This document shows positions 2,268 through 63,145 of a DNA stretch of 63,145 nt, piece after piece. How positions within the stretch are numbered: position 1 is the stretch's first letter; each line of letters starts with the position of its first letter. The stretch comes from an uncultured Planctomycetia bacterium (GTDB lineage Bacteria; Omnitrophota; Gorgyraeia; 1-14-0-20-64-10): contig CAYJVR010000007.1 in the NCBI GenBank assembly GCA_964373715.1, positions 26,787 through 89,931 of the forward strand. Direction: 5' to 3'. The notes under the pieces were generated by a model that was given only the letters and a program-made list of their open reading frames with translations, was not told the origin of the DNA and ran no database searches. Both the position numbers and the translations under genes were made by a program.

Positions 2268-3064
2268 CCAAAAGGATCATCCCCTGTCTCGATGTGAAAA
2301 ATGGCCGGGTCGTCAAAGGGACCCGGTTCGTAAACCTGAAGGACGCGGGGGACCCGGTCGAGGTGGCGCGGCGGTACGAGAAGGAAGGGGCTGATGAGAT
2401 GGTTTTCCTTGATATCACCGCCTCCCACGAGGGGCGGGACACGCGGGCCGATCTGGCCGCGCGCGTTGCCCGGGTGATTTTCATCCCGTTCACGGTTGGC
2501 GGCGGCATCAAGACGATCGGGGAGATCCGGAAAATTTTGCTGGCCGGCGCCGATAAGATTTCAGTCAACACCGCGGCGGTCAAGAACCCGAAGCTGATTA
2601 CCGAGGGTGCGAAGCGGTTCGGTTCCCAGTGCATCGTGGTAGCGATTGATGCCAAAAGAACAAGGGGCAGGAGACAGGGGGCACGGGGCAAAGGGCGAGG
2701 GGCGGGGGGCGGGGGAAAATGGGAGGTGTACCTGCATGGCGGACGGATCCCGACAGGTATCGACGCGGTGGCCTGGGCGAAGAGGGCGGTAAAGCTCGGC
2801 GCCGGGGAAATCCTGCTGACCTCGATGGATTGCGACGGCACGAGAAAGGGATACGACCTGGAACTCACCCGGTCGGTGGCGCAGGCGGTGCCGGTGCCGG
2901 TGATCGCCTCCGGCGGAGCGGGTAATTTACAGCATTTGGTTGCCGGTCTGACCAAGGGTATGGCTGATGCTGTCTTAGCCGCTTCGATTTTCCACTACAG
3001 GCAGTATACTGTTCCACAAGCCAAGCGCTACCTGAAGCGGCATGGCATTTCCGTGAGATTGTAA
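2261..3064 (+). CDS. hisF: imidazole glycerol phosphate synthase, cyclase subunit
   Basis: In-frame GTG at 2261 overlaps the hisA stop, so the listed ORF 1958..3064 is a 5' over-extension. Motifs [40 protein letters not shown] and ASGGAG. Carries a Gly/Arg insertion ([21 protein letters not shown]). Confidence 0.9.
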
Positions 3065-3074
3065 GAGGGGAACG

Positions 3075-3464
3075 ATGGCACATTCATGGATTAATGGGAT
3101 CAAGTTCGATTCGAATGGGCTGGTGCCCGCTATTATCGAGGATGCCGGCACGCATGAGGTTCTGATGGTGGCCTACATGAACAAGGAGGCGGTCGAGAAG
3201 ACCCTCTCCACGAAAAGGGCTCACTTTTATTCACGCTCCCGCCGGAAAATGTGGCTCAAAGGGGAGACCTCAGGCCATATCCAGAAGGTGAAGGGTCTGG
3301 CGATTGACTGCGACGGGGACGCGCTGTTGGTCAGCGTCGAGCAGGTGGGCGGGGCCTGCCATACCGGTTTTCGCACCTGTTTTTACCGGAAGCTCTCCGG
3401 CACAACTTGGAAAGAGACCGGCAAAAAACTATTTGATCCGGATAAGGTTTATGCCAAAAAATAG
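3075..3464 (+). CDS. hisI: phosphoribosyl-AMP cyclohydrolase (monofunctional, no HisE part)
   Basis: [44 protein letters not shown] and CHTGFRTCF. Only 129 aa. Confidence 0.85.
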
Positions 3465-24512: not shown

Positions 24513-24587
24513 ATTTTCAGGTTTTTCCTCCTAACCTCAAGTAATATTACTAGTTAGGTTGTTCGGTTGCATTCGGGGGCGCAGACT

Positions 24588-25814
24588 ATGCAGCGGTTCC
24601 GCTACAAAGCCCGTAATATTGACGGGCGGAATATGTCCGGTGAAGTGGTGGCTATCAGCCGCGAGGAGGTCGCCAGCCGCCTTCAAGAGGCCGGCGTCTA
24701 TGTCCTCTCTGTCAAGCCGATCCGGTGGTCGAGATCCTTCCTGCGTTTCGGGCGCGGTTACATTCCTCAAGAAGATCTCCTTGTTTTCCTTGAATCATGG
24801 GCCATGTTTCTGGAAGCAGGCATTTCGATGCAGTCCTCTTTGCTGCGCCTGCGCATGCGATCCAGAGTTCCCGCTCTAGCGGAAGGGATCGAGGACATGA
24901 TGTTTGCCATTGACAGCGGCGCCTCTGTCGGGGAGGCTCTGAAAGCCAGCCAACTGCTGCCTTCTGCCTGGGTTTCCGTCGTTGAAATGGGTGAAACCAG
25001 CGGCAATTATACCGAGCCGCTGAAAATGCTCTGCAGGGACTGTCTTGATTTCCAAAAGTTCAAAAGGGAAATCCTTTACCATCTGATCATGCCGTTTGTT
25101 CTGTTGGTTGTCATGGGGGTTTGGTTCTGGATTCTTTTTAAGAAGGTCATCCCGAGCCTTGTCATTTTAATGGAGTCGACCGGCGGGACGGTGAAGGTGC
25201 CGGTTTGGATGACGGCGTTCCTCTCATGGGTGATGTCTTCAGTCCAGTGGCTGGTCCCTGCGGCAGGGTGTGTTCTGCTTTTCTTCTGTCTGTGGGTCCG
25301 GCAGATCAGCCAGCAGGGAGGCCTTTCCCAGCTGTGGATTCCCCATTCAACGCCGGTCTTAGGCCCGCTTGTGAAACAGCTGCAGCTGATCATGGTGGCC
25401 AAAAACCTCCAAATGCAGTTGGAAGCAGGCATTCCGTTTGCCAACGCGATTGAATCCATGATCGAGGGAATCAGGAACGAGAGGGTCCGGAGGGATTTAA
25501 TACAGCTCTATCGGAAACTCCGAGAGGGTGTGCCGATTCCGGAGGCGGTTTCCGGTTTTCAGCTGTTCTCGCAAATGGGGCAATCGTTGCTTGTTGCCGG
25601 CCATGAAAGCGGCAAGATGCCCGAAATGCTGGGGTGTCTTGTCCGGGAAAGCGAATCCGTCCTGATCGAGAACATCAAGCGCCTGACGATCTTCATCCAA
25701 ATGACCGTCATTATCAGTTGCGGCATCACGGTCGGTGCTGTCGTTATCATGTTCTTCTCGATCTTCTTCAGCGCCATAGGGTCTTTCGCCAACTCCGGCG
25801 TCCTCAACCGCTGA
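24588..25814 (+). CDS. type II secretion / type IV pilus platform protein (GspF/PilC family), orphan
   Basis: ATG 24588 gives MQRFRYKARNIDGRNMSGEVVAISREEVASRLQEAGVYVLSVKP, a typical GspF/PilC N-terminus. Two T2SSF-like halves with three or four TM helices. No other T2SS or T4P genes in the window. Confidence 0.7.
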   Translation: MQRFRYKARNIDGRNMSGEVVAISREEVASRLQEAGVYVLSVKPIRWSRSFLRFGRGYIPQEDLLVFLESWAMFLEAGISMQSSLLRLRMRSRVPALAEGIEDMMFAIDSGASVGEALKASQLLPSAWVSVVEMGETSGNYTEPLKMLCRDCLDFQKFKREILYHLIMPFVLLVVMGVWFWILFKKVIPSLVILMESTGGTVKVPVWMTAFLSWVMSSVQWLVPAAGCVLLFFCLWVRQISQQGGLSQLWIPHSTPVLGPLVKQLQLIMVAKNLQMQLEAGIPFANAIESMIEGIRNERVRRDLIQLYRKLREGVPIPEAVSGFQLFSQMGQSLLVAGHESGKMPEMLGCLVRESESVLIENIKRLTIFIQMTVIISCGITVGAVVIMFFSIFFSAIGSFANSGVLNR

Positions 25815-34191: not shown

Positions 34192-34232
34192 CGGGGCGTG
34201 GCTCAGCTTGGCTAGAGCGCTTGCATGGGGTG
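34192..34232 (+). repeat. 41-nt exact duplicate of the 5' half of tRNA-Pro(GGG) (att-like direct repeat)
   Basis: cggggcgtggctcagcttggctagagcgcttgcatggggtg is identical to 36131..36171. Identity ends at the 3' edge of the anticodon loop. Confidence 0.9.
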
Positions 34233-34360
34233 TTTAGTACTGTTTTTGAAACGCATTCATACATAATGAGATACAGGTTGACTGGTCGCCATAAGGTCGC
34301 CATTGTATACAGTCAATCGAGGGCTGACCGTTACACTTAACGCAGGAAGGAGTTGTCTAG

Positions 34361-34663
34361 GTGAGCGCGAGGATTGCGATTGATCGGGAGAAGATAGCGG
34401 ATTTCTGCCGGCGGCATCACATTCGACGGCTGGCGCTCTTCGGCTCTGTTCTGCGCGATGATTTCCGGCCTGATAGTGACGTGGATGTCCTCGTCGAATT
34501 CGAGCCGGGTGCTACCGTTGGATTTCTCCGGTTAGCCGCAATGGAACTCGAACTGTCGGGCATTCTTGGTCGAAAGGGAGATCTAAGAACACCTGCGGAG
34601 TTGAGCCGGTATTTCCGAGATGAAGTACTGAAGGAAGCCGAGGTCCAGTATGTCGCGGCGTAA
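34361..34663 (+). CDS. nucleotidyltransferase-domain antitoxin (MNT/MntA-like)
   Basis: GTG start after aggaaggag. LALFGSVLRDDFRPDSDVDVLVEF is the GS..R...D.D minimal nucleotidyltransferase signature. Overlaps the downstream HEPN gene by 14 nt. Confidence 0.8.
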   Translation: MSARIAIDREKIADFCRRHHIRRLALFGSVLRDDFRPDSDVDVLVEFEPGATVGFLRLAAMELELSGILGRKGDLRTPAELSRYFRDEVLKEAEVQYVAA

Positions 34664-34985
34664 CGATGCTAACTTCCTACGCGATATGATTGATGCCGCT
34701 AAGGAGGCTCTCTCTTTCGCCCAGGGCAAGAAACGCAGCGACTTAGATGAGGACCGGAAGCTTGTGCTCTCCATCGTTCACTTGGTCGAGATTATCGGCG
34801 AGGCCGCGGACCATGTGAGCAGAGAGTTTCAGGAAGCCCATCCAGAGATCCCTTGGCCGGTCATCATCGGTATGCGGAACCGTTTGGCCCACGCCTACTT
34901 TGAGGTAGATCTGGACCGGGTTTGGGATACCGTGAAGGACGATCTTCTTCCTTTGATCTCTCAGTTGGAAGGGATTGTTAAATGA
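34650..34985 (+). CDS. HEPN/DUF86 (HepT-like) toxin
   Basis: IGMRNRLAHAYFEVD contains the Rx4-6H HEPN motif. Size about 110 aa. Paired with the upstream MNT gene. Confidence 0.8.
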   Translation: MSRRNDANFLRDMIDAAKEALSFAQGKKRSDLDEDRKLVLSIVHLVEIIGEAADHVSREFQEAHPEIPWPVIIGMRNRLAHAYFEVDLDRVWDTVKDDLLPLISQLEGIVK

Positions 34986-35467
34986 CCCGGCGCTTTCGCA
35001 ACCCGACACCTGCAAGCCGTCAATGCGATCGGGTGTTGAAACGGTTTCTTTCGGTTTGCCTTGCCTTCCTTATGTTCTTGGTTGCAGCGAATTGTTTTGC
35101 AGTTGAGGTAGCTGTCGAATGGCAAAGGAATGACGGCGTTTTTGATGGATTCATAGGAAAGCTGGAAATTGACATACAAAGCAAAGCTATGGCAGCTTCC
35201 GTCTTTGCAAAATCGGCCCATGGAGGTGTACAGGTTTACTCGCACCATTTTGAGATACTTGAAATTCAAGAGACGCTGGAAGGGCATTATCGCATTGGTT
35301 GCAGGAATGAAATGGGAGCGATGTTTTCGGGCCACGTCGATTTGAGTGATTCAGCCAAACCCGCAGTGAAGTTGTACGGACCCAACAACGTAGTCATCAC
35401 GAACATTTCTCGGGGTGGTAAGTGGTTCAAATTCTGGAATATTCGAAACGTATATTTGGGTCGATAG
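34982..35467 (+). CDS. hypothetical secreted protein
   Basis: ORF has an N-terminal hydrophobic signal-like segment FLSVCLAFLMFLVAANCFAVEV. Start overlaps the HEPN stop (aaATGAcc). No family recognised. Confidence 0.45.
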   Translation: MTRRFRNPTPASRQCDRVLKRFLSVCLAFLMFLVAANCFAVEVAVEWQRNDGVFDGFIGKLEIDIQSKAMAASVFAKSAHGGVQVYSHHFEILEIQETLEGHYRIGCRNEMGAMFSGHVDLSDSAKPAVKLYGPNNVVITNISRGGKWFKFWNIRNVYLGR

Positions 35468-35555
35468 ATTCAAGTGAACTTGTTGAGTAGGTACGTACCT
35501 TGTAACGGCCTTGGGAAGCAGACTCATTTGTAACGAAAGAGATGGGAGTTAGAGC

Positions 35556-35912
35556 ATGCTGAATATAACTTTAATAGGTCTCATTATCTTAGGGGTAATC
35601 TCTGCCACTCTGCTTGCATGCTTGCACTTGAGGTTATTCTCATTTGATGCGTTGGCCTCTTCTTCTGTTGCAGAGTTTATAAGTAGAAGCTTTCTGCATT
35701 GTCTCGTTATGGCTGGAGCCATTGCTTTGGCTGTCTTTGTTTTGTTGCAGCTAAGGGATAGGGAGATACCTCGTGGAACTCATGCTGGCGAAGGAGCGGG
35801 AGGCGCTATTAACAGGCGGTTTATTACTCCTGAGTTCTTTCGGAACTTAGTAGCGGCACTTATTGCGGCGGGTTATTTGGGTCTCGTCGTTATGTTTCTG
35901 AACAGAGTTTAA
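35556..35912 (+). CDS. hypothetical membrane protein
   Basis: Three or four hydrophobic helices. Preceded by gggagttagagc. No family recognised. Confidence 0.45.
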   Translation: MLNITLIGLIILGVISATLLACLHLRLFSFDALASSSVAEFISRSFLHCLVMAGAIALAVFVLLQLRDREIPRGTHAGEGAGGAINRRFITPEFFRNLVAALIAAGYLGLVVMFLNRV

Positions 35913-36130
35913 TCAGCGGTAATGCCATAGAGTGGGAACACGATTGGTCTGACTGCCCGCTGGAGGTGGTTGAGTTGATATCAGCCATTCAGACTCTCGA
36001 TAGGTAGCCGGGATCGGTAACTATAAGGTCCCCATTTTGTGATGCTAGGCAACGCTTGGACAAGTTGGATTTAGCGGGGCAGTGTCGGAGTTCTCGTCGG
36101 TGGATGGATTTTCACAAGTCGTTGTGTTGA

Positions 36131-36208
36131 CGGGGCGTGGCTCAGCTTGGCTAGAGCGCTTGCATGGGGTGCAAGAGGTCCCGAGTTCAAATCTCGGCGC
36201 CCCGACCA
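36131..36208 (+). tRNA. tRNA-Pro (anticodon GGG), CCA encoded
   Basis: Cloverleaf read by hand: acceptor cggggcg/cgccccg, D arm gctc-agcttggcta-gagc, anticodon arm cttgc-atGGGgt-gcaag, variable loop aggtc, T arm ccgag-ttcaaat-ctcgg, discriminator a, then cca. Confidence 0.9.
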
Positions 36209-51674: not shown

Positions 51675-52092
51675 CTAGCACCGCCACCAAAGCGCCGACC
51701 ACCAGATGGGCGGTCGTGTCCGGTTTTCCGGCCGGTTCCGAAGGGGGTGGGTTCTTTTGTCTTTGCTCGTCGTAGATCGTTTGGAGTTCACCCCGTTCCA
51801 GCCAAAGCCCGCGGCACCGCGTGCAGCGGTCCACCAGAAGGGTCACCCCTTCGTTATAAGGCAGTTCTTCCATCAACTGCTGGCAGCGGGGGCAGGTGAC
51901 GCGCTCGTTCGAGGCTTTCTTTCTCGTCTCCTTCGCGGGCGGCGGCAGATCGGGCATGTCCGCGTTGGTTTGGGCCAGCCGGGTCAGTTCTCCGGCATCC
52001 AGCCAGATGCCGTCGGAGAGCTCGCACCAATCCAAAGAGATCCCTTTGTCTTCAATAGGTCGCATGGCGGCCTGGTCCGCGGGACATTTCAT
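51628..52092 (-). CDS. membrane-anchored protein with two zf-TFIIB-like zinc ribbons
   Basis: ATG at 52092 is preceded by ggaggggg. MKCPADQAAM..ISLDWCELSDGIWLDAGEL and CPRCQQLM..LLVDRCTRCRGLWLERGEL (C..C..C..C plus the WLD/WLE.GEL signature). C-terminal TM helix LVVGALVAVLVIAGILLVAFAIL. Confidence 0.65.
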   Translation of the reverse strand: MKCPADQAAMRPIEDKGISLDWCELSDGIWLDAGELTRLAQTNADMPDLPPPAKETRKKASNERVTCPRCQQLMEELPYNEGVTLLVDRCTRCRGLWLERGELQTIYDEQRQKNPPPSEPAGKPDTTAHLVVGALVAVLVIAGILLVAFAILHR

Positions 52093-52172
52093 CGGTTTAC
52101 CCCCTCCGGGTGGGTTATTCGAAGCATACCGCAACGATGTTTTTCCGTCAATTCTTTGTGGAGGTCCCGGCG

Positions 52173-52646
52173 ATGATTCTTCCGGCGGCGGTGGTTGTGG
52201 CTGCGGCTTTGTGGGTGGGAGGCCAGCTGTTTTTCGCCGCGGTGGTCACCCCGGCTGTTTTCCGTTCGCTCCAGAAAGAGGAAGCTTCAAAATTTTTGGG
52301 CACTTTGTTCCAGATTGCCAACCAGTGGTTCTTTTTCTGGGGTTTAGTCATGGTCGTTTCCCTTCTTTTGTTCTTCTGGGAGCACCATTTTGAATTCCCC
52401 GCTCTTATTCTCGAGATTCCGGCCGGTTTGGCTTTTCTACTGACCTGCCACTCCGTTTTCATTATCCATCCCCAGATCCGTGAGTTGAAGAGGAAGATGT
52501 CACTGCCTGATTTTCACGGGTCCGTCCACCTGCAGGTCATGGAGTTTTCGTTCGGCCGCCTGCACCGCTATTCCGTGACCCTTCATCTTTTGGTCTTAGG
52601 TTTAGGGTTGGCGATTTTGGTTTCGATCCCTTCTTCCCTCAAGTAA
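52173..52646 (+). CDS. hypothetical 4-TM membrane protein (DUF4149-like)
   Basis: ATG 52173 follows ggagg. MILPAAVVVAAALWVGGQLFFAAVVTPAVFRSL.. has a pattern reminiscent of DUF4149. Assignment is weak. Confidence 0.45.
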   Translation: MILPAAVVVAAALWVGGQLFFAAVVTPAVFRSLQKEEASKFLGTLFQIANQWFFFWGLVMVVSLLLFFWEHHFEFPALILEIPAGLAFLLTCHSVFIIHPQIRELKRKMSLPDFHGSVHLQVMEFSFGRLHRYSVTLHLLVLGLGLAILVSIPSSLK

Positions 52647-53134: not shown

Positions 53135-53228
53135 CAAGGTGATAGTTTGTAGTTAATAGTAAATATAGTTAATAATTTCTATTGAAAGACTCTGGTCTTT
53201 AAAGGTATACTTCCTATATATCCCGACC
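53135..53228 (+). promoter_or_regulatory. AT-rich leader/promoter region of giant ORF 2
   Basis: caaggtgatagtttgtagttaatagtaaatatagttaataatttctattgaaag.. is AT-rich, has no GGAGG before ATG 53229, and shares the 11-mer gtttgtagtta (inverted) with the giant ORF 1 leader. Confidence 0.35.
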
Positions 53229-56200
53229 ATGAAAACTGGACGATTTTTGCCAAGATTTATAGCGCTTTTACTAGCATTCTCGCTGAGTGTGCCGTCACCC
53301 TCCTTTGCTCTGCGTCCTCAACAGGCGCCGGAGAGCAGCGAAGGGCGGCGGCTCGCCATGCTTTTGCTTTCAGGCAGGTCTTCCGCCGGATTAGAAGAGG
53401 GGAGTTATGGATTTGGTTTGACCGAGCGGGAATGGGCCGGCCTCAAGTACCTGATGAAGGATCAGCTGCCGGATCCGAACGAACCCGGTGCCTTGAACGA
53501 TGTGCGGGGATATCTTGCCCAGCTCGTCCGTGAAGGCTATGGCCCCGAAGAACCCCTTTCCGTCGGAGATCGCCAGCTTGCCGAAAATCTTTCCCGCAGA
53601 TTAGGAGAGATCTCCCTCCAGCGGGCGAGAGAGGCTCCCGTGATGCGTCCTCAGCCGACGGCGACTCAAGCATCTGCCGGCACTCCAGGAACGGTTATTC
53701 CTCCCGGTGTCTATGATCCCTCTCAGCAGGGTCCCGCTCAGGGGATGGTGAAGATTGGGGAGGGTTATTTCAATAAGAAGACCGTTGTTCTAGGGGTTTT
53801 GGCCGTTGCCCTTCTGGGTATTGCGGGATATTTAGCTTTCGGTCCTTTCTGGAAAAAGGGGCCCGAGGATGTTAAAGAGCCGAAGCCCGGCATTGAGAAA
53901 AAAGATGCTCCTCAGAAGAAGCCGCTGAATAAAAGGGACGGCGGCTTAGAGGAAAAGGTCGGGGAACTCAATAAGCTGAGCCTTGAGGTTGTCAGGGGAT
54001 GGACACAGCTGGGCCGGCGGGCGCAGATTCTCGATATGAGGGGATTAGCGAACGCGGTTGGGGTTACAGAGCAGAAGATCCAGGTCCCGATCGTCCTTCC
54101 ACGGGAGGCCGAGAGGATTCTCACGGAGAACCGGACGGTTGTTCTTCAGGCGCTTCAGCCTCCGGCCGCCGGGCAATCCGATGTTCTCATTCTGCAGGAG
54201 ATCGCGTTAAACCCGGAAGACGAAAACGTCACGCAGGAAACGCTGTCTTCACAGCGTTCTTTCCTGAACAGACAGCTTGAAAGCATCGCCGCCTCCCGGT
54301 CGGGGGGGCAGGTCCGCCTCTCTTCATCCGCCAGAACCTTCGAGCAGATACGCCTCTTCTTAACACTGCATGATCCATGGGCGGTCATCGTTTCCATGCC
54401 GGGCGGTCAGCCGGCATGGACCTACCTGGATGCGCATATGGACGCGGACGGGAAGTTTGTGAAGATCGCGAACGATCTTCTCCCCGGCAAGCCAGGCGAC
54501 TACGATTACGACCTCACCCTATTGGACGGCGTCCTTTCTTTTGACATGGATATAGGAGGCGGTATTTACTCCCGTGTGGATGTTCCGCCGGGAAGACTCC
54601 AGGCGGTCATTATTGCCCGCCCCAAAAATAAATTCGGCGGGTTGGAAGAGAATGCCGTTTGGACCAAAAGGATTGATCAAGGGTTCGACGGAAAACGCCT
54701 TCTGCTGTTCGGTTGGAGCGGATTTGTGGGGGGGCGGTTGCTCCAGGATCTTTCACAGCGTGTGGGCAGCCGTGTTTCCCATATCACGGCGGTAAGCCGG
54801 ACTGCCGGCCCGGTTCCCGGCCCCGGTTCTCCTCTTTCGGGCAAGTTCACTCCGCGGGCGGGCGACCTGCTCCAGATCAGCTTCATCCGGCAGATCGTCA
54901 ATCCGTCCGGCAGATTCGATGTCCGGCCGGACAAGATCTTTATGCCCGCAGGACTCGCTTGGCAGCATCCGCCCTCTTTGGGGCGCCAGCCTACAGAAGC
55001 CGATCTGCAGGCGATTCTCGAAGAAGAACTTTTATTCAACGGTATGACCGTTTTAATGTTGAGCGCTGTGATGTCTGACCGGCAGCAGCTCATCGTGACC
55101 TCTTCCAACGCGATTGACGTTATGGTGAGTCAATTGCCGGAGGCTCAGCGGCCGGCGCTGCAACAGCAGGCAGTCGAGATGGCGCGCCGCTATCTGGCCG
55201 CTTGGGTGCCGGCCATTGAGAAGCAGCAGAACCCGACAGCGGACGAGTTGAGATCTTTTGTCCGCAAGGATCTCGAGCAATTTCCTCCCGCGGATCCGGC
55301 GTTTGTCCGCCGACTCAGCTATCCCTATTCGATGTTGCTGCGGGAAGAGATTTTGAAGTTGGCTGCCGAGAGATCGGGTAAAGAGATCCGTGTGCTGCGG
55401 ATCTCCGATGTCTACGGGCCGGGTCAGCCGCTTGGCCGGGCCGTCTTGAATCCGGACCGCTCGGCGCGCCGGCCACAGCGGTTTTTAGCGGCATTGCTCG
55501 AGAGTTCGACCGGCTGGACGGAGTGGATCAGCCAATACGGTTCCCGCGCTCATGGTTTTCAGATCGACGGACAGGGGCATCTGACCGTCGCCATTCGTAA
55601 CGACTGGGTCGCTCCCACTTATGTCGGAGATGTGACCCAGATGTTGATTCGCGCGGCGGTGGCTGACATTCCGAAAGAGCAGGTTGTTCTTGAAGTCAGC
55701 GCCCCTTGGATCTCCAACAGGCAGATGGTGGAAACGATCCGTGACGTTGTCAGCGAAACCGTCGGCCAGGCGGATGTCGTTATACAGACGCAGGGCGCTC
55801 GGCAAGAAAAGCCGGCGGCCCGAAGCCGGGATCTGCGGCGATTAGGATTGACGTCAGTATCGCTCACGCCGCTGGACCAAGGGCTGCGGAATTGGCTTAG
55901 CCTCGGCGCCGCTGGACTGGAAGAAGGGCTGAAGTTCGGCGATCCGATGGTGTGGAAAGACGAGCGCGAGAGGACGGAGAAGATCGTCCAGGGCGCAATC
56001 GATTTCCTCCGGCAGAGAGCGGAGGTCTACGGAGTGGCTTATCCGGCGCTTTTCTCCGCTGCGGTTGTTGATCCGAGAATCGAGCACCTGAACCGGATGT
56101 GGGAAGGCATCCAGGCCGACATGGCCGGCCAGCCGGTTGTCGTGAGCGTGAAGGATCTTTACGCCGTGAAGCCGGAGGTCCAGATCAAACGGTTCGGCCA

Positions 56201-59200
56201 GGTGATTTGGGGCGAGAGTCTAACCGCCCTTTCCTGGAAAGAGATTCCTTACAACATCGCCCAGTCCCTGCTTTTCAGCGAAGTGGCATGGGCCACCGGT
56301 TTCCTGGACGCTCCCGGCAATCCGCTCACCGATTTCTACAAGAAGACCCGTGACAAGCAGCAGGAAGATTCCCTGATCACCGCGCAGGGGGTCCCCACGC
56401 TTCCGGCGTACGTCCGGTTCGTGCTCGGCGGGTATTCCTTTGAACGGCTGCGCTCTCTTCCAAACCAGCAGAAACAGGACGTGCTCAAGCGGGCGCTGCT
56501 GCTGGTGCTCAAGGGCAACGCTTTGGACCCGAACGTGCTCGACAAGCTGAAAGTTAACGCGGATTTGTTGAGCCAGCAGCTCGCCGATCAAAGCAGTCTG
56601 ATTCTCAACGACACCGATGCGCTTGTGAATGCGCTGACTGATCCGTCGGTTCGGGAAACGGTTTTATTCCCGGACAATACCGGCGTCGAGATGATCGGCG
56701 CGACGCTGTTGACCGCAGTCTACCTCAGGATGTATCCGGCAAGGAAGGTGACATGGGGCGTGAAGGAAGCTCCCTATCTGAAGGTGGACGTGGCCCGGCG
56801 GGACTTGACCGGATGGGACACGGTTGTGGACCAGGTTGACGGCCGAAGCTGGCTGGCCCGTTTCCGGGACGGCAAGTACAATCCCGGCCAGGATCCCCAG
56901 GTTCAGCAGCTCTTCGATTTTATGGCTGGTGCGGTCGGTGAGCCGGGTCGCTTTGAGGTCATGAGCCATTCGTGGCTCGAGAGTGGTCTTTCGGGGAAGC
57001 AGATTCCGGCCGATTTAGCCGCCCGTGTCGGCGGACGAAGCCGGATTCTGATCGCCGATGGCGAATGGCTAAACGAGCGGTTTGCCAACGGCGTTCCTTA
57101 TCCGCAGGGGACCTCGTACGAGATGGCGTGGGGGTATCTCGGCGAGAAAGGGATCCAGCAGTTCGGCCTTCTGCGGATGATCAAGGACAAATTCATCGTC
57201 GTTATTCCTCCGGGGCGTGTTCCGGACGATTTCGAGGTGCTCGAAGGGGGAGTCCAGGGTCTTGTGAGCTTTGCCCGGTTTGAGGCCGGGTTGGAGGAGC
57301 CGACGCAGGAGCAGATCTCAGAACGGATTCGGGTCATGGGCGATGTTTCCTACGATCTTGCCACTGAAATATTCGAGATGAGCGAGAGACAGAATCGTCC
57401 TATTGCGGAGCTTCTGCAAAGTCAGCCGATTTTGGAGATGGTACTGCCCCTGTTTGACGCCGATAAACAACTTCGGAAATCCTTGAGGCGAGGCGGCCTT
57501 ACTGTTTCGGAAGTCGAGGAGTCGATTCAGCGGCTGATTGAAGGCCCGCAGCCGGAGACCCGGCTGCTGCTGGCGGAAACCGTTCTCAACGTCCTGGCGA
57601 TAAGACGTCAACACGGCGCCTCTTTGGACTATCCGGACATCCTAGCTGATTTCCGGACCTTAGCGAAAGGTGAAATCGCTGCGAATCAGGCGAGATACAG
57701 ACAGGTAGAACCATTAGTAGACATCTCCGCGCTGGCATTGATCGAATGGGCGAAAGTCAGCGTCGGACTTTTCCCCGCCGGGCTGGAGGAGCCGACGCAG
57801 GACCAGGTTCGGGCCGCGGCGCTGCAGATACTTCAGTCCCCGGAGACTCGCGGGGGGCGGTGGGTCTTGTTCATTCCTCAGTTGGACGCGTCGGTCCGTG
57901 ATGCGCTGATTGACGACACCCGCGCGGCGATTAACGCCAACCAGGCGGGGTGGATCTCTGGAGGATTGCTGACGAAAAAAGAGTTGAACCATCTGCGTGG
58001 CGACGTCAACACGGCGATCCAGAAAGCCAATTCTCAACTTGCAAGAGAGAGCAAAGAGAAGGCCAAAGTGAAAACCGAAGCGTCCCCCACGAGCCCGACG
58101 GCTTCTGCTCAGCCTCAAGTCCGTCAGCCGCCGGCCGCGCCGGTTGTTTCTTCGCCCGCCGTTTCAGTCCCTGCTCGTCCGGTGACCGGCTGGAACGCGG
58201 AGGTCGAGCGGGTGGTTGAGGCCGTCAGACAGGGCCGCCGGGGGTCCATCTTGCGGCTCCAGGACCACGACGTGGTCAACAGCCAGGAATTCCTCGATTT
58301 TGTTGATGAAATTATACGGCGCGGTGTTCCGGCGAACCGGATCGTTGTTTTGACCGAAGTCGGCAAACCCTCGACCCAGGCCCTGATCGAAAGCATGGGC
58401 AGGATGGGGATCCGGGACCAGGTCCTCCAGATTTTCCAATCCGGCGCGGCCTACCCGCTCATGCAGACCTACTTCGCCCGGGGCGGCCAGGTGCCGATCA
58501 ACCTGAGGGCCGTTTTTCCCGATCGACAAAGGCTCGACCTGATCCACGGGATGCACCGGCAGTTGTACCCCTTGTGGGAGAATTTGCTTGCCCGTGCCCG
58601 GCAGGGGGGCGTGACGAGCCCGTCTTCGGTCAACCAGATATCCAGAGGTCTTGCCGACAGGGGCGTCGGCCAAATTTGGGAGCGGTCCTCTCCGGCTTAC
58701 TGGTTTCTGGGTTTCTTTTCCGCTGTTTATGGGAATGCGATGGCGGACATTTATGTCCGGGGGGATGAGACGAGGGCCATTGCCGGCACTCAGGTTGATT
58801 TGGATACGAGGGAGTGGAGCACGAATGAGAGGGATGCGACCATCGCTGCCCAGTGGAATCAGATCATGGGCGACCTCCGGTCCGAAGGGTTTTTGATCCT
58901 GGGTGAGTTCGGCGGCATGCATGATTCCATCGTGGGCCGGCTTCAACCGGGAGAGATTCCTTTCGCGGTCAGCCGCAGCGAGGTTGCCTCTGGTATCGAC
59001 AACGATCCGTTCCTTGATCTTGCGCGGCGGCGGAACGAACAAGGGCGTTTGGGCCAGCCCTTCGACGTGGCCGATTTGCCTCTGGTCCAAAAGTTCCCGA
59101 TCTACAGCCGTCTGAAAGAACTCTGGGTCAGTCTCCCGAGGAGGGGTTTCCTCGGTGAGACTCGGGCTGCTCTCTCCGGCATCAAGGAAATACTTTCCGG

Positions 59201-62200
59201 CCTTCAGGGCCAGCAGGTGGCGGAGCTGAACAGGAAGATATTCGAGGTTACCTCGCAAGGACGGTGGCCCGCCGGAGTAATCCAGTCCCCGGCGGATGTC
59301 GATTTGGCGCAGGCCTACCTCATCTATGCGTGGTTGAACGATCCTTCGCGAAATCTCGTGACGCCCGAGTTTAAGCAGGTACTTCCGGCGGATGTCACCG
59401 GCATGACGGAACAGAACTGGTTCCGGGTGTTTGCCGACCGCGTGACGGCAGCCGGCCGAGAAAAGTGGGAAAACGCGATTGCGCAGGTGCTTTCCCAAGG
59501 GTATGGAATTCCCGAGCCACAGCTGAGATCTCGTCTGCAAAAATACGATTTCAATGTGTTTCGGGTGACATGGGGAGCCTCTGTCGAATCCTTGGTGGAT
59601 TTCTACGCGCGTGTTCTCGGCGTTTCTCTGCAGCCGGAAGAGAGGGCTGCTATGGCGAGCAGGCTCTCTTTGTTAGCCCAGCCCCAGTCGGTGTCTCTGC
59701 CGGCAGAGATTGAGCAGGCCTACGAAAGGCTTTTAAGGGCGGGGCCGATGGATTTCATGGCGCGGTTTGAGGAGCTCGAAGAAGTGGTCGGCCGGTTTCT
59801 CGCTCTTCACCCGGGAGAGATCCAGAATGACGCTTTGAGGCGGTGGATGGATGCCACCGCTTATACGCCGGAGGAGACGGCGATTATTAAAAGAACTGCG
59901 GAACGAATTGTCGCAGCGTTCAATCCGGGCAATCCGCGGTCGGCGGTTTTTGTGAATGAGATCGTCCGGTGGTCTAGGCCGATGTCGTTGAGGGCAACGA
60001 ATAGTTTGTGGCTGGATGCCGGGATTTCGGTTTATACGCCGGGTTTCCTGAAGCTGTTTCACGACGATGCGATGCAGTCGCTGACGTCGGACAGTTATTT
60101 CGCCGTTTCTCCCAAGCAGGGTTTCCCCTCCAGCTGGCGTGTTCCAACGGCGGCTTTTTTGGGTTCCAAAACCAGGTTTGCCGGCAAGTCAGCTCATGAA
60201 ATCACCCATGCGGAATTGTTCCGGAACGCGCCGGATTGGTGGCACACGCAGGGTCAGGGGGCGGTTGCTCCTGCCGATAGGATTACCCGCGCGGTGCAGA
60301 CCCTGATCGAAGACAGCGCAGCCCGAGAAATAAGGGAGGCTCGCCGGCCTTCGTTGCCGCCGTTTACGTCTTCTCCGAATGCCGGGCCTGCGGCGATTCA
60401 GTATCTCTACGAGGAAGGCCAGCGGATTTCCGGAAACCCTGAAGCATGGGATAGTTTCTTCCAATCGGTCGGTTTTATGCCGTTTACCGGTATCCATTAC
60501 GCGCAAGGGCCGATTTTGGCCGGTATCGCTTACGGGATCGGCCGCGAGATTGCCGTGCAGAAGTCTCAGACAGATCCGTATGAGAGAGCTTTACGGTTCG
60601 TCGCGTTCTACGCCCGTTCCGCCAAAGACTTGAGTACTCAGGAATTGATCCGTGCAGCCGCGGAATTCCGGAACCTGCCGGAGAACCAGGCCGGCCTGGA
60701 GGAGCCGAGTCAAGAAGAGATTCGCAAGGAGGCGGTTGAACTTCTGAAGATCCACACCGGACGCGATGCGATCCGCAACGGTAAATGGGCTCCGCTGATA
60801 CAGTTTCTCGAACAGAGTGCTTTGGAGACTTTGCAAGCACTCCTTGACAACCCAAGACAGACGGTTCCACCCAATGAGCAAGTTTGGAAACAACAAGGGT
60901 TGCTCAAAGGGGGTGGCGTTGCAAAGCTACTCGTTGGTGATATTGGAGAGGCCAAGCGCCGGGCTCAAGAACGCCTCAAGAGGAAAGTGGATGAGGCCGC
61001 GGGAGAGAAGGTTCGGGAGGAAGGAAAACAAAAAGCTGCTGAAGCTGAGCGTCTCATGCGTCCGGCGAAATGGGCCCACCAAGAGATGCTACCGGCTCTC
61101 AGGCGATTGGCCGAATCCCATCTGAACGATTTCTCGAGATTGCGCCAAGCTGGAGAGGCGCTTCCCGACCAGAAACAAGCGTGGCAATCGGTAGTAGATC
61201 AGCTTGAGCAAGCGACCCAGCAGTGGCGGCAGGAGGGACCGACTGCAGTTTCGGAACTTCAGTTCTTTACGCAGCTTGTTCACCGATTAAATCAACAGTG
61301 GTTTCTTGACCGTCAAGAACTACTTGCCATCGCTTCTGGGACAGCCATAGAAGGAGCCGTCGACGTTGCGGACTCTCTGGCCGTCGCCCGCGTCGTCAGA
61401 AGCAGGCGATACGAGTTGGAAGGACGGTTGGTTCCTGTCTATTTTATAGAGGAACTTTTCCCGCCACGCCGCGGCGAGCTGTTAGTCGGATGGACTCCAG
61501 TAGGGATTATTCTGATGCCTTTGAAGAATTTAGCCGAGATAGCGCAGTTTCCTTGGGGGGTTCCAAAGAGGTCGGAGACTTGGCTACGGAAGGGATTTAG
61601 CCCAAGCTTTGTTGCCGCCGTTTCAGAGCTGTATGGGGAGAGAACTCGTCGGCGATACAAAGAGACCGAACGATATCTTCCCGTCCTGTCGGAGGAAGTC
61701 CTTTTTGAAGAGATTCGGCACGCTCTCGACCATACCCGCGTGCAGGCCGCCACAGGGAAGACCTTCTTTACCGCCGGCGATGAATTTTTTGCGCAGTTCG
61801 TAGAAACGCAGCTTCGGCCAAACGGACTTTTGCGGGACATCCTCTGGGAGCATCCTGTCCTGGAAGGCGTTGAGTTCGAGAAACTGGAAGCCCCTCAGAT
61901 GGCTGCATTAAAACGGGCTTTTGCCCAGAGTTTATTTGAGTTCTCCGGAGGGATGACCTTCGCCGCTGCAGAGTCAGATCCAACCCGGAGTGTGGGAGAC
62001 TGGCTTTACTTTCAGGTGAGATGGGCCCTGAGTCAGAGTGCAGAATCTTCCTATTCCAACATGCTTTATGCAAATGTCGGAAAACTGGGAATTCTCTTGC
62101 TTGCCGAAGAGTTTGGGATAGCGCAGATTCCGTGGAGGACGGGTGCTTGGATAAACATCAAGAAGGACCAGCTGGCCTCGATGGCCCTGGCCATCGCCGA

Positions 62201-63145
62201 ACATCCCCCAGAAAAAATTCGGCTGGCGATGAAAGCGATTTACGCGCGCGAGTTCATCCATCCCATTGACGAACCTCCATTCCCAGAGATTGGCCCCGAT
62301 GGAAACCTTGTCCCGCGACCTGGCGCCGGATTGGAGGAGGGGTCGGCGGAAACCCCTGCGGCGCCTCAGCTAAATCTTATCGTCCGCGGAATGCTTGAGC
62401 ATGATTACGGTATGCCGGGTCAAGAGAGCCAGGTGCTGGAGATTCAAAGCAGGAACCCGCGGCCGCAGGGAGATTGGCACAGGGAGCTTTTCCACGGGTA
62501 CGCGCAGGCGGAGCGGGCGATCGTGGCGCAGGATCAGGGCAGCTGGTGGAGTCCCGATACGCTCAGGTTGGCGGGTTTTCTTGCTTTTGAGATCAAAGGG
62601 GGCGACGAGGATGCTCCGATTCCGGAGCGGGAGAAGATCGAGATTGTCCATCTGGCGGTCCATTCGGATTATTGGGAATCCGGACAGGTGGAGAAAGAGA
62701 TGGTGGCTTTGCTGCGCGGCGACTACCCGGAACTGCCCATTGTGATGACCGTGCACGAGGAGGACCGCAGCACACTGGAGTTTTTGAAAAGGCTCGGTTC
62801 CACCTCCGTTCGGCTCCCCCACCGGTTCGGTGATCGCGATGGTTTTGAGTTTCTGCTGTCGGAAGCGGATCGGGAAGGTGCCCTTGGTGTTGTTCCGGAA
62901 CAGGATTTCAACTTCAAGGTTCTTCAAATTAGAAATTGGGTTGCAGAGGGACAGATGTCCGTTGAGACAGCGGCTTTAGAAGTGGTGCGGGTGCTGGAGC
63001 AGGTGAAGGAAAGGTCCGCTTTCAATAGCTGGGGCTATGTTCGTGACATTTTGGATTTGGCTGAGAATGAGGTGGGGCTGGGTGGTGCCGTGTTTCTGCG
63101 GCTTTTCGCGGAGCAGGCGGTGAGGATGGCGCGCGGGGGACAGGA
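53229..63145 (+). CDS. giant protein 2, 3' end beyond the window (at least 3305 codons): signal peptide, TM helix, extended-SDR-like, DUF89/ARMT1-like, HExxH-containing and GNAT-like modules
   Basis: Hand translation of the frame with codon starts divisible by 3 gives no stop from ATG 53229 to base 63145. The supplied track lists no + strand ORF in this frame in the region. Starts MKTGRFLPRFIALLLAFSLSVPSPSFA. Eight [A/G]GLEE motifs, all in this frame. Confidence 0.85.
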   Translation, partial: MKTGRFLPRFIALLLAFSLSVPSPSFALRPQQAPESSEGRRLAMLLLSGRSSAGLEEGSYGFGLTEREWAGLKYLMKDQLPDPNEPGALNDVRGYLAQLVREGYGPEEPLSVGDRQLAENLSRRLGEISLQRAREAPVMRPQPTATQASAGTPGTVIPPGVYDPSQQGPAQGMVKIGEGYFNKKTVVLGVLAVALLGIAGYLAFGPFWKKGPEDVKEPKPGIEKKDAPQKKPLNKRDGGLEEKVGELNKLSLEVVRGWTQLGRRAQILDMRGLANAVGVTEQKIQVPIVLPREAERILTENRTVVLQALQPPAAGQSDVLILQEIALNPEDENVTQETLSSQRSFLNRQLESIAASRSGGQVRLSSSARTFEQIRLFLTLHDPWAVIVSMPGGQPAWTYLDAHMDADGKFVKIANDLLPGKPGDYDYDLTLLDGVLSFDMDIGGGIYSRVDVPPGRLQAVIIARPKNKFGGLEENAVWTKRIDQGFDGKRLLLFGWSGFVGGRLLQDLSQRVGSRVSHITAVSRTAGPVPGPGSPLSGKFTPRAGDLLQISFIRQIVNPSGRFDVRPDKIFMPAGLAWQHPPSLGRQPTEADLQAILEEELLFNGMTVLMLSAVMSDRQQLIVTSSNAIDVMVSQLPEAQRPALQQQAVEMARRYLAAWVPAIEKQQNPTADELRSFVRKDLEQFPPADPAFVRRLSYPYSMLLREEILKLAAERSGKEIRVLRISDVYGPGQPLGRAVLNPDRSARRPQRFLAALLESSTGWTEWISQYGSRAHGFQIDGQGHLTVAIRNDWVAPTYVGDVTQMLIRAAVADIPKEQVVLEVSAPWISNRQMVETIRDVVSETVGQADVVIQTQGARQEKPAARSRDLRRLGLTSVSLTPLDQGLRNWLSLGAAGLEEGLKFGDPMVWKDERERTEKIVQGAIDFLRQRAEVYGVAYPALFSAAVVDPRIEHLNRMWEGIQADMAGQPVVVSVKDLYAVKPEVQIKRFGQVIWGESLTALSWKEIPYNIAQSLLFSEVAWATGFLDAPGNPLTDFYKKTRDKQQEDSLITAQGVPTLPAYVRFVLGGYSFERLRSLPNQQKQDVLKRALLLVLKGNALDPNVLDKLKVNADLLSQQLADQSSLILNDTDALVNALTDPSVRETVLFPDNTGVEMIGATLLTAVYLRMYPARKVTWGVKEAPYLKVDVARRDLTGWDTVVDQVDGRSWLARFRDGKYNPGQDPQVQQLFDFMAGAVGEPGRFEVMSHSWLESGLSGKQIPADLAARVGGRSRILIADGEWLNERFANGVPYPQGTSYEMAWGYLGEKGIQQFGLLRMIKDKFIVVIPPGRVPDDFEVLEGGVQGLVSFARFEAGLEEPTQEQISERIRVMGDVSYDLATEIFEMSERQNRPIAELLQSQPILEMVLPLFDADKQLRKSLRRGGLTVSEVEESIQRLIEGPQPETRLLLAETVLNVLAIRRQHGASLDYPDILADFRTLAKGEIAANQARYRQVEPLVDISALALIEWAKVSVGLFPAGLEEPTQDQVRAAALQILQSPETRGGRWVLFIPQLDASVRDALIDDTRAAINANQAGWISGGLLTKKELNHLRGDVNTAIQKANSQLARESKEKAKVKTEASPTSPTASAQPQVRQPPAAPVVSSPAVSVPARPVTGWNAEVERVVEAVRQGRRGSILRLQDHDVVNSQEFLDFVDEIIRRGVPANRIVVLTEVGKPSTQALIESMGRMGIRDQVLQIFQSGAAYPLMQTYFARGGQVPINLRAVFPDRQRLDLIHGMHRQLYPLWENLLARARQGGVTSPSSVNQISRGLADRGVGQIWERSSPAYWFLGFFSAVYGNAMADIYVRGDETRAIAGTQVDLDTREWSTNERDATIAAQWNQIMGDLRSEGFLILGEFGGMHDSIVGRLQPGEIPFAVSRSEVASGIDNDPFLDLARRRNEQGRLGQPFDVADLPLVQKFPIYSRLKELWVSLPRRGFLGETRAALSGIKEILSGLQGQQVAELNRKIFEVTSQGRWPAGVIQSPADVDLAQAYLIYAWLNDPSRNLVTPEFKQVLPADVTGMTEQNWFRVFADRVTAAGREKWENAIAQVLSQGYGIPEPQLRSRLQKYDFNVFRVTWGASVESLVDFYARVLGVSLQPEERAAMASRLSLLAQPQSVSLPAEIEQAYERLLRAGPMDFMARFEELEEVVGRFLALHPGEIQNDALRRWMDATAYTPEETAIIKRTAERIVAAFNPGNPRSAVFVNEIVRWSRPMSLRATNSLWLDAGISVYTPGFLKLFHDDAMQSLTSDSYFAVSPKQGFPSSWRVPTAAFLGSKTRFAGKSAHEITHAELFRNAPDWWHTQGQGAVAPADRITRAVQTLIEDSAAREIREARRPSLPPFTSSPNAGPAAIQYLYEEGQRISGNPEAWDSFFQSVGFMPFTGIHYAQGPILAGIAYGIGREIAVQKSQTDPYERALRFVAFYARSAKDLSTQELIRAAAEFRNLPENQAGLEEPSQEEIRKEAVELLKIHTGRDAIRNGKWAPLIQFLEQSALETLQALLDNPRQTVPPNEQVWKQQGLLKGGGVAKLLVGDIGEAKRRAQERLKRKVDEAAGEKVREEGKQKAAEAERLMRPAKWAHQEMLPALRRLAESHLNDFSRLRQAGEALPDQKQAWQSVVDQLEQATQQWRQEGPTAVSELQFFTQLVHRLNQQWFLDRQELLAIASGTAIEGAVDVADSLAVARVVRSRRYELEGRLVPVYFIEELFPPRRGELLVGWTPVGIILMPLKNLAEIAQFPWGVPKRSETWLRKGFSPSFVAAVSELYGERTRRRYKETERYLPVLSEEVLFEEIRHALDHTRVQAATGKTFFTAGDEFFAQFVETQLRPNGLLRDILWEHPVLEGVEFEKLEAPQMAALKRAFAQSLFEFSGGMTFAAAESDPTRSVGDWLYFQVRWALSQSAESSYSNMLYANVGKLGILLLAEEFGIAQIPWRTGAWINIKKDQLASMALAIAEHPPEKIRLAMKAIYAREFIHPIDEPPFPEIGPDGNLVPRPGAGLEEGSAETPAAPQLNLIVRGMLEHDYGMPGQESQVLEIQSRNPRPQGDWHRELFHGYAQAERAIVAQDQGSWWSPDTLRLAGFLAFEIKGGDEDAPIPEREKIEIVHLAVHSDYWESGQVEKEMVALLRGDYPELPIVMTVHEEDRSTLEFLKRLGSTSVRLPHRFGDRDGFEFLLSEADREGALGVVPEQDFNFKVLQIRNWVAEGQMSVETAALEVVRVLEQVKERSAFNSWGYVRDILDLAENEVGLGGAVFLRLFAEQAVRMARGGQ

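Follow-up and report, generated by a model that had tools for sequence, protein, structure and literature searches.

The Omnitrophota encode giant proteins of 10 to 147 kilo-amino acids (kaa), among them a class in which the Pfam domains of enzymes (GNAT, methyltransferase, HATPase) tile the chain; 39% of these long proteins carry a signal peptide together with transmembrane (TM) helices, and genes for type II secretion (T2SS) or type IV pili (T4P) are often found near them (10.1101/2023.11.21.568195; 10.64898/2026.06.07.730766). C39 domains are common in the giants, and West-Roberts et al. suspected that these giants are cleaved after translation, stating that the cleavage points are unknown (10.1101/2023.11.21.568195). 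A term search of the other preprint returned no mention of cleavage (10.64898/2026.06.07.730766). Whether such a giant works as one chain or is cut up is a recognised puzzle, and its describers say that the lack of cleavage points blocks a domain-wise analysis. Here we report on a 63,145-nucleotide (nt) stretch of contig CAYJVR010000007.1 (assembly GCA_964373715.1), the whole of which we call the window, and on a giant open reading frame (ORF) that begins at ATG 53229 and runs off the window's end. As a secreted or anchored multi-enzyme ORF it is of a kind known in Omnitrophota. What is apparently undescribed so far is its signature, which consists of a short delimiter motif, [A/G/S/T]-G-[L/A/Q/M]-E-E (AGxEE in the following), between the modules of the chain, a leader of the type AxA-LR (a signal peptide ending in AxA and followed by LR), and the exclusion of cysteine. 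Term searches of both Omnitrophota preprints found no mention of any of the three, and term searches with the motif strings in the open-access full-text literature gave nothing relevant. That this motif-delimited, cysteine-free modular architecture exists in one real gene we regard as very probable. An earlier note on this DNA had described the giant ORF and called such a protein very unusual for bacteria. This was overstated, since multi-enzyme proteins of 10 to 147 kaa with signal peptide and TM helices are described for Omnitrophota and one relative of the giant is labelled Candidatus Omnitrophica. The most informative features, the AGLEE delimiter, the zero cysteine count and a second AGLEE protein in the window, were absent from that note.

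From ATG 53229 on the + strand the frame holds 3305 sense codons and stays free of stops through base 63143, which leaves two bases to the window edge. The preceding stop in this frame ends at 53168, and the remaining five frames over 53229-63145 contain 47 to 135 stops each. Translation thereby confirms the frame that the earlier note had proposed, and its explanation for the missing entry in the ORF list holds as well: the lister, by its own description, skips ORFs that run off the ends, and the + strand ORFs that it does give between 53.2 and 63.1 kb (54713, 56972, 60817, 62395) all lie in the other two frames. Every 900-nt tile of the giant ORF has a coding look, the G+C content at first codon positions (GC1, about 0.6-0.68) exceeding that at second positions (GC2, about 0.38-0.49), and GC3 amounts to 0.56-0.76, which is below the 0.76-0.82 of the housekeeping genes in the window. 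The codon usage correlates with that of these housekeeping genes at r=0.81, compared with 0.19 and -0.01 for the shifted frames. A look-up with the upstream DUF2062 gene furnished two Logan contigs from independent runs, L001 (ERR4904390) and L002 (ERR3478687), which are 100% and 99.99% identical to the region with 0 indels. Neither an in-frame stop or frameshift nor a chimera, the ways in which the earlier note thought the frame might fail, was seen.

In both contigs the gene call is open to the contig end (window-equivalent 63275 and 63526). The extension that the earlier note had anticipated was consequently found in part: the frame stays open to at least 3432 codons in the L002 contig, but the stop is not reached. 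The three assemblies end within about 400 nt of each other (window-equivalent 63145, 63275 and 63526), inside the last visible module, M8, or just past it. Because they all end near one point, we suggest that the sequence just downstream breaks short-read assembly, as a repeat or a paralogous module would. Further extension was attempted by matching the last 46 nt exactly against metagenome contigs and by scanning such contigs with an M8 profile, both of which gave no match; a scan of the genome collection gave only a relative at 35% identity (L003). The giant product is absent from both protein collections, the exhaustive HMMER search included, and we therefore infer that the gene is cut by the contig end in the NCBI record too, a contig of 89,931 bp that carries the housekeeping proteins of the window and is longer than the window. 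Upstream of ATG 53229 there is no obvious Shine-Dalgarno sequence. A sigma-70-like promoter match lies at 53182..53211 on the + strand (TTGAAA, an 18-nt spacer and TATACT; 10 of 12 positions), 18 nt upstream of the ATG; it is a consensus match alone, in a region that overall has no excess of such matches. An Rfam scan of the window returned no RNA family.

The delimiter motif is the feature that organises the protein. GLEE is found eight times in the giant product (at amino acids (aa) 54, 239, 471, 896, 1354, 1518, 2489 and 3034), six times preceded by A and twice by G, and these copies divide the product into a leader followed by eight modules (M1 to M8; 160 to 970 aa each; Table 1). In 5000 shuffles the motif count averaged 0.165 and never exceeded 3, and the 34 housekeeping proteins of the window are free of it over 12,676 residues. 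The codons for the Gly, the Leu and both Glu differ synonymously between the copies, and therefore selection on the motif acts on the peptide and not on DNA or RNA. An internal Shine-Dalgarno-like signal for internal initiation (GGnCTGGAGGAA containing GGAGG) was considered and is ruled out, since the codons vary (GGA/GGC/GGG; TTA/TTG/CTG; GAA/GAG) and no start codon follows; indeed, neither an internal start codon nor a ribosome-binding signal was seen after any of the delimiter motifs in the giant ORF.

A logo built from 74 sites of the family reads A or S at position -2, A (52 of 74), T, S or G at -1, then G, then L (46), A (15) or Q (8), and finally E and E, with no conservation in the flanks further out. 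The distances between motifs in this set are mostly 100-600 aa, and the leaders of relatives often carry two motifs, 18 to 40 aa apart. When the window and ten fetched loci (about 199 kb) were scanned in six frames, the matches fell in this protein class or in frames overlapping it. The exceptions were two chance matches, of which the first falls in a MutS-like ORF (L012) and the second in a stretch of 278 aa on L011 that is free of stops and unassigned. In alignments at 35-45% identity the motif keeps its place, and six relatives have M8 flanked by it on either side. Its third position is biased by lineage (AGLEE in P0001, P0002, P0004, P0007 and P0031, AGAEE in P0003, P0038 and P0045, AGQEE in P0014), with some mixing. 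In AlphaFold2 (AF2) models the motif residues are poorly ordered: residues 1-11 of M8 have a predicted local distance difference test (pLDDT) score under 50, and the two ends of M7 score 69-73. Each recognisable domain is confined to one inter-motif segment; this holds for DUF89, GNAT and Metallophos, for the methyltransferase of P0045, and for the HATPase and P-loop domains of P0014.

Table 1. Coordinates of the giant ORF, its leader, modules and delimiter motifs, and of the second protein of the class in the window.
Feature	Position (nt)	Strand	Remarks
Giant ORF	53229..63145	+	3305 codons in window, open at edge; at least 3432 in independent assembly
Leader	53229..53384	+	aa 1-52; Sec-type signal-like peptide ending ...PSPSFA-LR (LR after the predicted end), short spacer to motif 1
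Delimiter motif 1, AGLEE	53385..53399	+	aa 53-57
M1	53400..53939	+	aa 58-237; N-terminal domain, TM helix aa 186-204, Lys-rich tail
Delimiter motif 2, GGLEE	53940..53954	+	aa 238-242
M2	53955..54635	+	aa 243-469; orphan, no family match
Delimiter motif 3, GGLEE	54636..54650	+	aa 470-474
M3	54651..55910	+	aa 475-894; Rossmann / extended-SDR-like
Delimiter motif 4, AGLEE	55911..55925	+	aa 895-899
M4	55926..57284	+	aa 900-1352; DUF89 / ARMT1-like damage-control phosphatase domain
Delimiter motif 5, AGLEE	57285..57299	+	aa 1353-1357
M5	57300..57776	+	aa 1358-1516; orphan; opens AGLEEPTQEQI...
Delimiter motif 6, AGLEE	57777..57791	+	aa 1517-1521
M6	57792..60689	+	aa 1522-2487; small helical N-part, Pro/Ser/Ala linker, P0019-like domain, orphan region with HEITH
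Delimiter motif 7, AGLEE	60690..60704	+	aa 2488-2492
M7	60705..62324	+	aa 2493-3032; apparently new family, about 420 aa, confident AF2 model
Delimiter motif 8, AGLEE	62325..62339	+	aa 3033-3037; aligned with AGLEE at aa 934 of the L003 relative
M8	62340..63143	+	aa 3038 to at least 3305; GNAT fold + helical domain
Second protein of the class, 1949 aa	27092..32941	+	AGLEE at aa 69-73 and 451-455; SGLEE at aa 1737-1741

The second mark of the protein is its lack of cysteine. None of the 3305 residues is Cys, although about 28 would be expected from the housekeeping proteins of the window (0.84% Cys; P ~7e-13). At the DNA level, the giant frame has 0 TGY codons compared with 110 and 134 in the other two + strand frames. 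The exclusion extends to the motif-bearing family, with 16 Cys in 23,864 residues (0.07%), while stand-alone homologues of M7 without the motif contain 1.08% Cys. Since a lack of cysteine is a usual trait of proteins exported in the unfolded state or active outside the cytoplasm, the whole giant chain is presumably exported or exposed to an extracytoplasmic setting.

For the content of the chain we ran Pfam and NCBIfam on the whole 3305-aa product and on the modules, together with a PDB sequence search and, for the topology, a hydropathy scan. The scan shows just two hydrophobic segments, aa 10-28 and aa 186-204 (the latter nt 53784-53840), which are the N-terminal signal-like segment and the TM-like helix of the earlier note. 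On the whole product the family searches give a single family, PF01937 (ARMT1-like / DUF89), which scores 40.9 bits (cut-off 25) at aa 1075-1194. The same match in M4 alone (nt 56451-56810) reaches 45.2 bits and spans profile positions 99-211 of 311, and the only hit of the giant product in the PDB sequence search is the yeast DUF89 protein 3pt1 (3pt1/5by0; E=5.9e-4, aa 1078-1329). The DUF89-like module noticed before is thus secure. No significant paralogy was detected among the modules of the giant by BLAST; M5, M6 and M7 have the common start 'AGLEEP[TS]Q..[IV]R', and M1, an orphan like M2 and M5, is 29% identical to the N-terminus of P0019. In M3, for which an extended-SDR fold had been claimed, the GxxGxxG element (GWSGFVGG) and RISDVYGPG are present, but YxxxK is absent from aa 475-894 and Pfam stays sub-threshold, both for Epimerase (E=0.031, 14.1 bits vs a cut-off of 20.9) and for the NAD-binding matches. 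The k-mer homology search found no homologues of M3. We conclude that M3 is SDR-like at best and possibly non-catalytic.

M6 contains the Pro/Ser/Ala-rich linker that the earlier note had pointed out (aa 1618-1652, nt 58080-58184) and a domain (aa 1635-1883, nt 58131-58877) that is 71% identical to P0019. The HExxH region is real as a motif, a single HEITH at aa 2323-2327 (nt 60195-60209; chance of at least one by shuffling 0.029), but no family stands behind it, as its surroundings gave no Pfam, NCBIfam or PDB match and no homologues. M7 is different in that many stand-alone proteins of 400-600 aa match its core, among them P0010 from Pirellulales. An AF2 model from 38 sequences reaches a pLDDT of 88 and a predicted TM-score (pTM) of 0.79, and fold searches with it found nothing significant (best E=1.3 in PDB, best E=0.17 in BFVD). 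There is also no PDB profile match and no Pfam family common to the 38 members. Judged by this model, M7 appears to be an undescribed, well-folded protein family with a stand-alone form in Planctomycetota. Its conserved polar residues are N2688, E2827, E2828, R2830, H2831, D2834, E2904, R2998 and D3014, and the conserved tail ...PIDEPPFPEIGPDGNLVPRP adjoins the next delimiter motif. The E2827-E2828-x-R-H2831 element (nt 61707-61721) opens a long helix after a beta-sheet and, with a distant Glu, resembles a zincin site with the first His replaced; we regard this as a lead and not as a result. Another observation concerns the stand-alone M7 homologues P0021, P0024, P0030, P0051 and P0061, which are low-complexity and AT-biased-looking and begin with a common 'FPQLxHTAPxWG...' N-terminus that has the look of a distinct signal, specific to a lineage, for targeting or secretion.

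The GNAT-like tail proposed in the earlier note corresponds to M8, with the GNAT fold at about aa 3050-3210 (nt 62376-62858). The AF2 model of M8, made from an alignment with six relatives, has a pLDDT of 73.7 and a disordered leading GLEEGSAETPA. Foldseek matched it to 220 PDB entries at E<=1e-3, with Naa10/Ard1, Naa50 and Naa60 at the top (probability 1.0, target-normalised TM-score up to 0.76). The M8 sequence of the window gives no Pfam GNAT (PF00583) match at E<=10, and its profile searched against PDB gives YpeA at E=0.6; the orthologous module of L003 is matched by Pfam GNAT with 21.5 bits vs a cut-off of 20.7. By the modelled fold M8 is confirmed as a GNAT module, nearest to the protein N-terminal acetyltransferases of RimI / Naa type. 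The window truncates it about 45 aa short of its end in relatives, where AGLEE or TGLEE comes next. Taken together, these searches support the view of the earlier note that unrelated enzyme-like modules, most of them without a known family match, are strung together in this protein.

Relatives of the giant exist. When aa 2488-3305 were searched exhaustively with HMMER against 1.84 billion representatives, 62 matches were returned, of which about 15 are multi-module proteins with the signal peptide-AxA-LR leader and modules bounded by [AGST]-G-x-E-E. The leader is found in P0002, P0008, P0009, P0019, P0031, P0038, P0045 and P0065, and in most relatives it is present while the TM helix is absent. 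The k-mer homology search gave no match for the whole 3305 aa, and for aa 1635-2488 only P0019. L003, a protein of 1725 aa from a metagenome-assembled genome, aligns to aa 2950-3305 of the giant at 35% identity and has AGLEE at the same aligned position; P0007, labelled '[Candidatus Omnitrophica bacterium]' by NCBI, is 44% identical in M8 and carries the same motif. The combinations vary from protein to protein. At one and the same locus, after sdhABCD, P0007 (2011 aa) and P0009 (1632 aa) have only some modules in common, P0002 consists of one M8 module with leader and flanking motifs, and P0019 joins an M1-like N-terminus with TM helix to an M7-like module and the copy of giant aa 1635-1883 mentioned above. 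P0065 has two M7 copies; it is present in the sequencing run that also contains the contig of the window, and may come from the same genome. Where further domains are recognised in relatives, they come one per module (methyltransferase in P0045, HATPase and P-loop in P0014, GNAT in L003). Compared in this way, the modules are shuffled between family members.

The neighbourhoods of the relatives contain sdh/nuo, hopanoid, lysine-biosynthesis and recA genes, and at the loci examined no gene recurs beside family members, neither a protease nor a transporter. The assembly accessions of the relatives are not found in the supplements of the Omnitrophota paper or in full texts. A C-terminal module ending '...GQAGLEEAA' or '...AGLEQAA' directly before the stop is conserved in P0004, P0005, P0009 and L003p (L011 14860-14960, L016 3020-3030, and the L003 ORF end at 11772), and in two loci a HAD-hydrolase gene follows directly after it. 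Many family members end in Ala-Ala or x-Ala, like the non-polar C-terminal tags that are read by tail-specific proteases.

The window itself holds a second protein of the class (Table 1, last line). Its first two motifs enclose a Metallophos (calcineurin-like phosphoesterase) module, after which come about 14 tandem protein repeats, each about 78 aa long ('...RIAPxVQLPNGQPFxTWEDLKAYLKANK...LSYxTLVxAFxEAGW...') that are invisible at the DNA level to Tandem Repeats Finder. Its GC3 is 0.50 compared with the 0.76-0.82 of the housekeeping genes, and it contains 1 Cys where 16.5 are expected. Pfam matches within the repeats (M29, MBD, LysC and others) look spurious and have no significant stretches.

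How, then, is the giant chain used? We tentatively favour, though short of an even chance, that it is a bacterial polyprotein. The Sec-type leader, a signal peptide ending AxA-LR, starts a chain of independently folded modules of 160-970 aa; the whole chain would be exported or exposed outside the cytoplasm; the AGxEE motifs would be recognised by a trans-acting, site-specific endopeptidase; and this enzyme would cut the precursor, after or during export, into separate module-sized proteins. Cleavage is favoured because each boundary has a strict site that lies in a linker, is preceded by small residues and drifts by lineage in its third position, as is expected for a site that co-evolves with a reader. 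The more general idea, that AGxEE is the signal of a dedicated processing system and that the lineage makes many of its exported enzymes as cysteine-free polyproteins, is somewhat doubtful. Several points weigh against cleavage, which is read from the pattern of the sequence. Within the 3305 aa Pfam and NCBIfam detect no protease domain, neither C39 nor S8 nor C80, and since the part seen has no cysteine, no cysteine protease (C39, C80) is possible there; a protease gene that recurs beside the family members was likewise not found at the loci examined. In several relatives that end in ...AGLEEAA, a cut would remove just 2 to 5 residues. In addition, the third position is mixed inside single proteins (P0009, P0014), so the motif is degenerate and not strictly lineage-specific. 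Finally, a Lys-rich stretch comes after the TM helix at aa 186-204, and the positive-inside rule would put M2-M8 in the cytoplasm, a predicted topology that conflicts with the export suggested by the cysteine exclusion. The description "secreted or anchored" in the earlier note has the whole-chain cysteine exclusion on its side.

These points can be read differently. AGxEE could be read but not cut, for instance as the place where a scaffold, chaperone or secretion factor docks, as a site of Glu-Glu modification or as a conserved hinge, in an intact membrane-anchored multi-enzyme chain. This is a serious possibility, if not one we would expect to prove right. Several relatives have a copy of the motif 2 to 9 residues before their C-terminus (AGLEEAA or AGLEEYL ahead of the stop), a position better suited to a recognition tag than to a cleavage site; the paired motifs 18-40 aa apart in leaders could serve for targeting; the search for a protease in or beside the genes found none; and many long proteins of Omnitrophota have been read as intact membrane-anchored assemblies (10.64898/2026.06.07.730766). 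However, a strict five-residue motif at module boundaries, disordered linkers and free shuffling form the classic polyprotein pattern, and a hinge would not require an invariant G-x-E-E. A different proposal, combinable with either reading of the motif, concerns the location: N-terminal segment and TM helix would form a hairpin with a small periplasmic loop (aa 29-185), and the protein would be a membrane-anchored cytoplasmic multi-enzyme whose modules use NAD(P), acetyl-CoA and phosphate esters in the cytoplasm, the cysteine exclusion having another cause. Under the positive-inside rule, the Lys-rich aa 205-237 after the helix fit such an orientation. Cytoplasmic cofactors are required by the GNAT, SDR-like and DUF89 modules, and for the dominant class of long proteins in Omnitrophota the published interpretation is that of cytoplasmic domains carried by a membrane anchor (10.64898/2026.06.07.730766). 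We nevertheless consider this location unlikely, as most relatives have the leader without a TM helix and would be exported whole, and as Cys is excluded along the entire chain and across the family, in contrast to the cytoplasmic proteins of the window and the stand-alone M7 homologues. That the long frame is an artefact, be it a chimeric assembly, a row of neighbouring genes that sequencing errors have joined, or a frame that is open by chance in G+C-rich DNA, is highly improbable. The locus is admittedly hard to assemble, the window and two further assemblies having their ends just downstream and no more than about 400 nt apart, and most of the giant product has no homologue. Yet the same sequence occurs in two other assemblies from different runs, the frame is free of stops where each of the other five has dozens, codon usage and GC1/2/3 are coding-like in every tile, homologues of M1, M6, M7 and M8 are joined similarly in other organisms, and the motifs are followed by no start codon or ribosome-binding signal.

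About 34 recognisable genes of the window all lie on the + strand, GC skew is positive throughout and the cumulative skew climbs steadily; the window is a 63-kb co-oriented stretch of one replichore. The genes include those for His and Trp biosynthesis, M48, M16, LepA, LepB, Der, PlsY, T2SS-F, GpsA, Hom and ThrC, and further Ask, LeuA-like, ValRS, NadC, UvrB, BirA and NfeD. Such full amino-acid biosynthesis operons do not suggest an extremely reduced symbiont. The peptidases among these products (M48, M16, LepB, NfeD) were considered as dedicated processing proteases and rejected, being of ordinary housekeeping types. On L001 a 154-aa Zn-ribbon (TFIIB-type) call at 2945-3409 (- strand), between NfeD and DUF4149, is the sole minus-strand gene called nearby; the + strand ORF opposite it, 51706-52176, has no Pfam match and is probably not the real gene. 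The first 41 nt of tRNA-Pro(GGG) at 36131-36208 are duplicated exactly at 34192-34232. Between the copies lies an islet of about 1.9 kb whose GC content is low (about 0.49; window 34192-36208). The islet holds an overlapping gene pair, 34361-34663 / 34650-34985, which by eye looks like a nucleotidyltransferase/HEPN toxin-antitoxin pair, besides two orphan ORFs of small size. The islet resembles what is left of an element integrated at the tRNA, now without an integrase.

In summary, we found a giant gene whose product is divided by a short peptide motif into a leader and at least eight modules and is devoid of cysteine in the part seen. In comparison with the described Omnitrophota giants, the protein is alike in uniting many unrelated enzyme-like domains in one ORF, in having a signal peptide and a TM helix, and in the large share of dark sequence; alike are also the ORF cut at contig ends, the T2SS-F gene nearby (24567-25814) and the relative labelled Ca. 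Omnitrophica. It differs in its visible length, about 3.4 kaa here while the catalogues start at 10 kaa, and in that the part seen is without a C39 or S8 peptidase, dockerin or SecA domain. The MARTX toxins of Vibrio are giant chains that carry their own C80 cysteine protease and glycine-rich RTX repeats, use type I export and are cut after Leu. With them our protein has in common, as far as is generally known of MARTX, the giant chain with variable, shuffled enzyme modules and the short unstructured linkers, which in MARTX hold a defined processing site; it differs in that C80 and RTX repeats were not found in the 3305 aa by Pfam and NCBIfam, and in its Sec-type leader and AGxEE site. Double-glycine sites require a conserved upstream leader helix. 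Unlike in double-glycine / C39 proteins, the 74 sites lack conservation at positions -8 to -3, Pfam finds no C39 domain in the part of the giant seen, and no transporter adjoins the relatives at the loci examined. What the giant shares with both viral polyproteins and C39 double-glycine leaders is a short conserved site at each junction that contains small residues (A-G) and would be read by one dedicated protease. With respect to the DUF89 (PF01937) and GNAT families, M4 and M8 are peculiar in sitting as beads in a giant cysteine-free chain. AGxEE offers concrete candidate processing or recognition sites that are common to the whole family, together with the leader and the near-total exclusion of cysteine, and it provides a sequence rule by which such proteins can be split for structure prediction and members without other homology can be spotted. 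Should the motif indeed be cut, M7, with its EExRH...E site and new fold, would be one candidate hydrolase among the released proteins, and we would have before us a bacterial counterpart of viral polyprotein expression, which would supply the cleavage map for the giant genes of the Omnitrophota.

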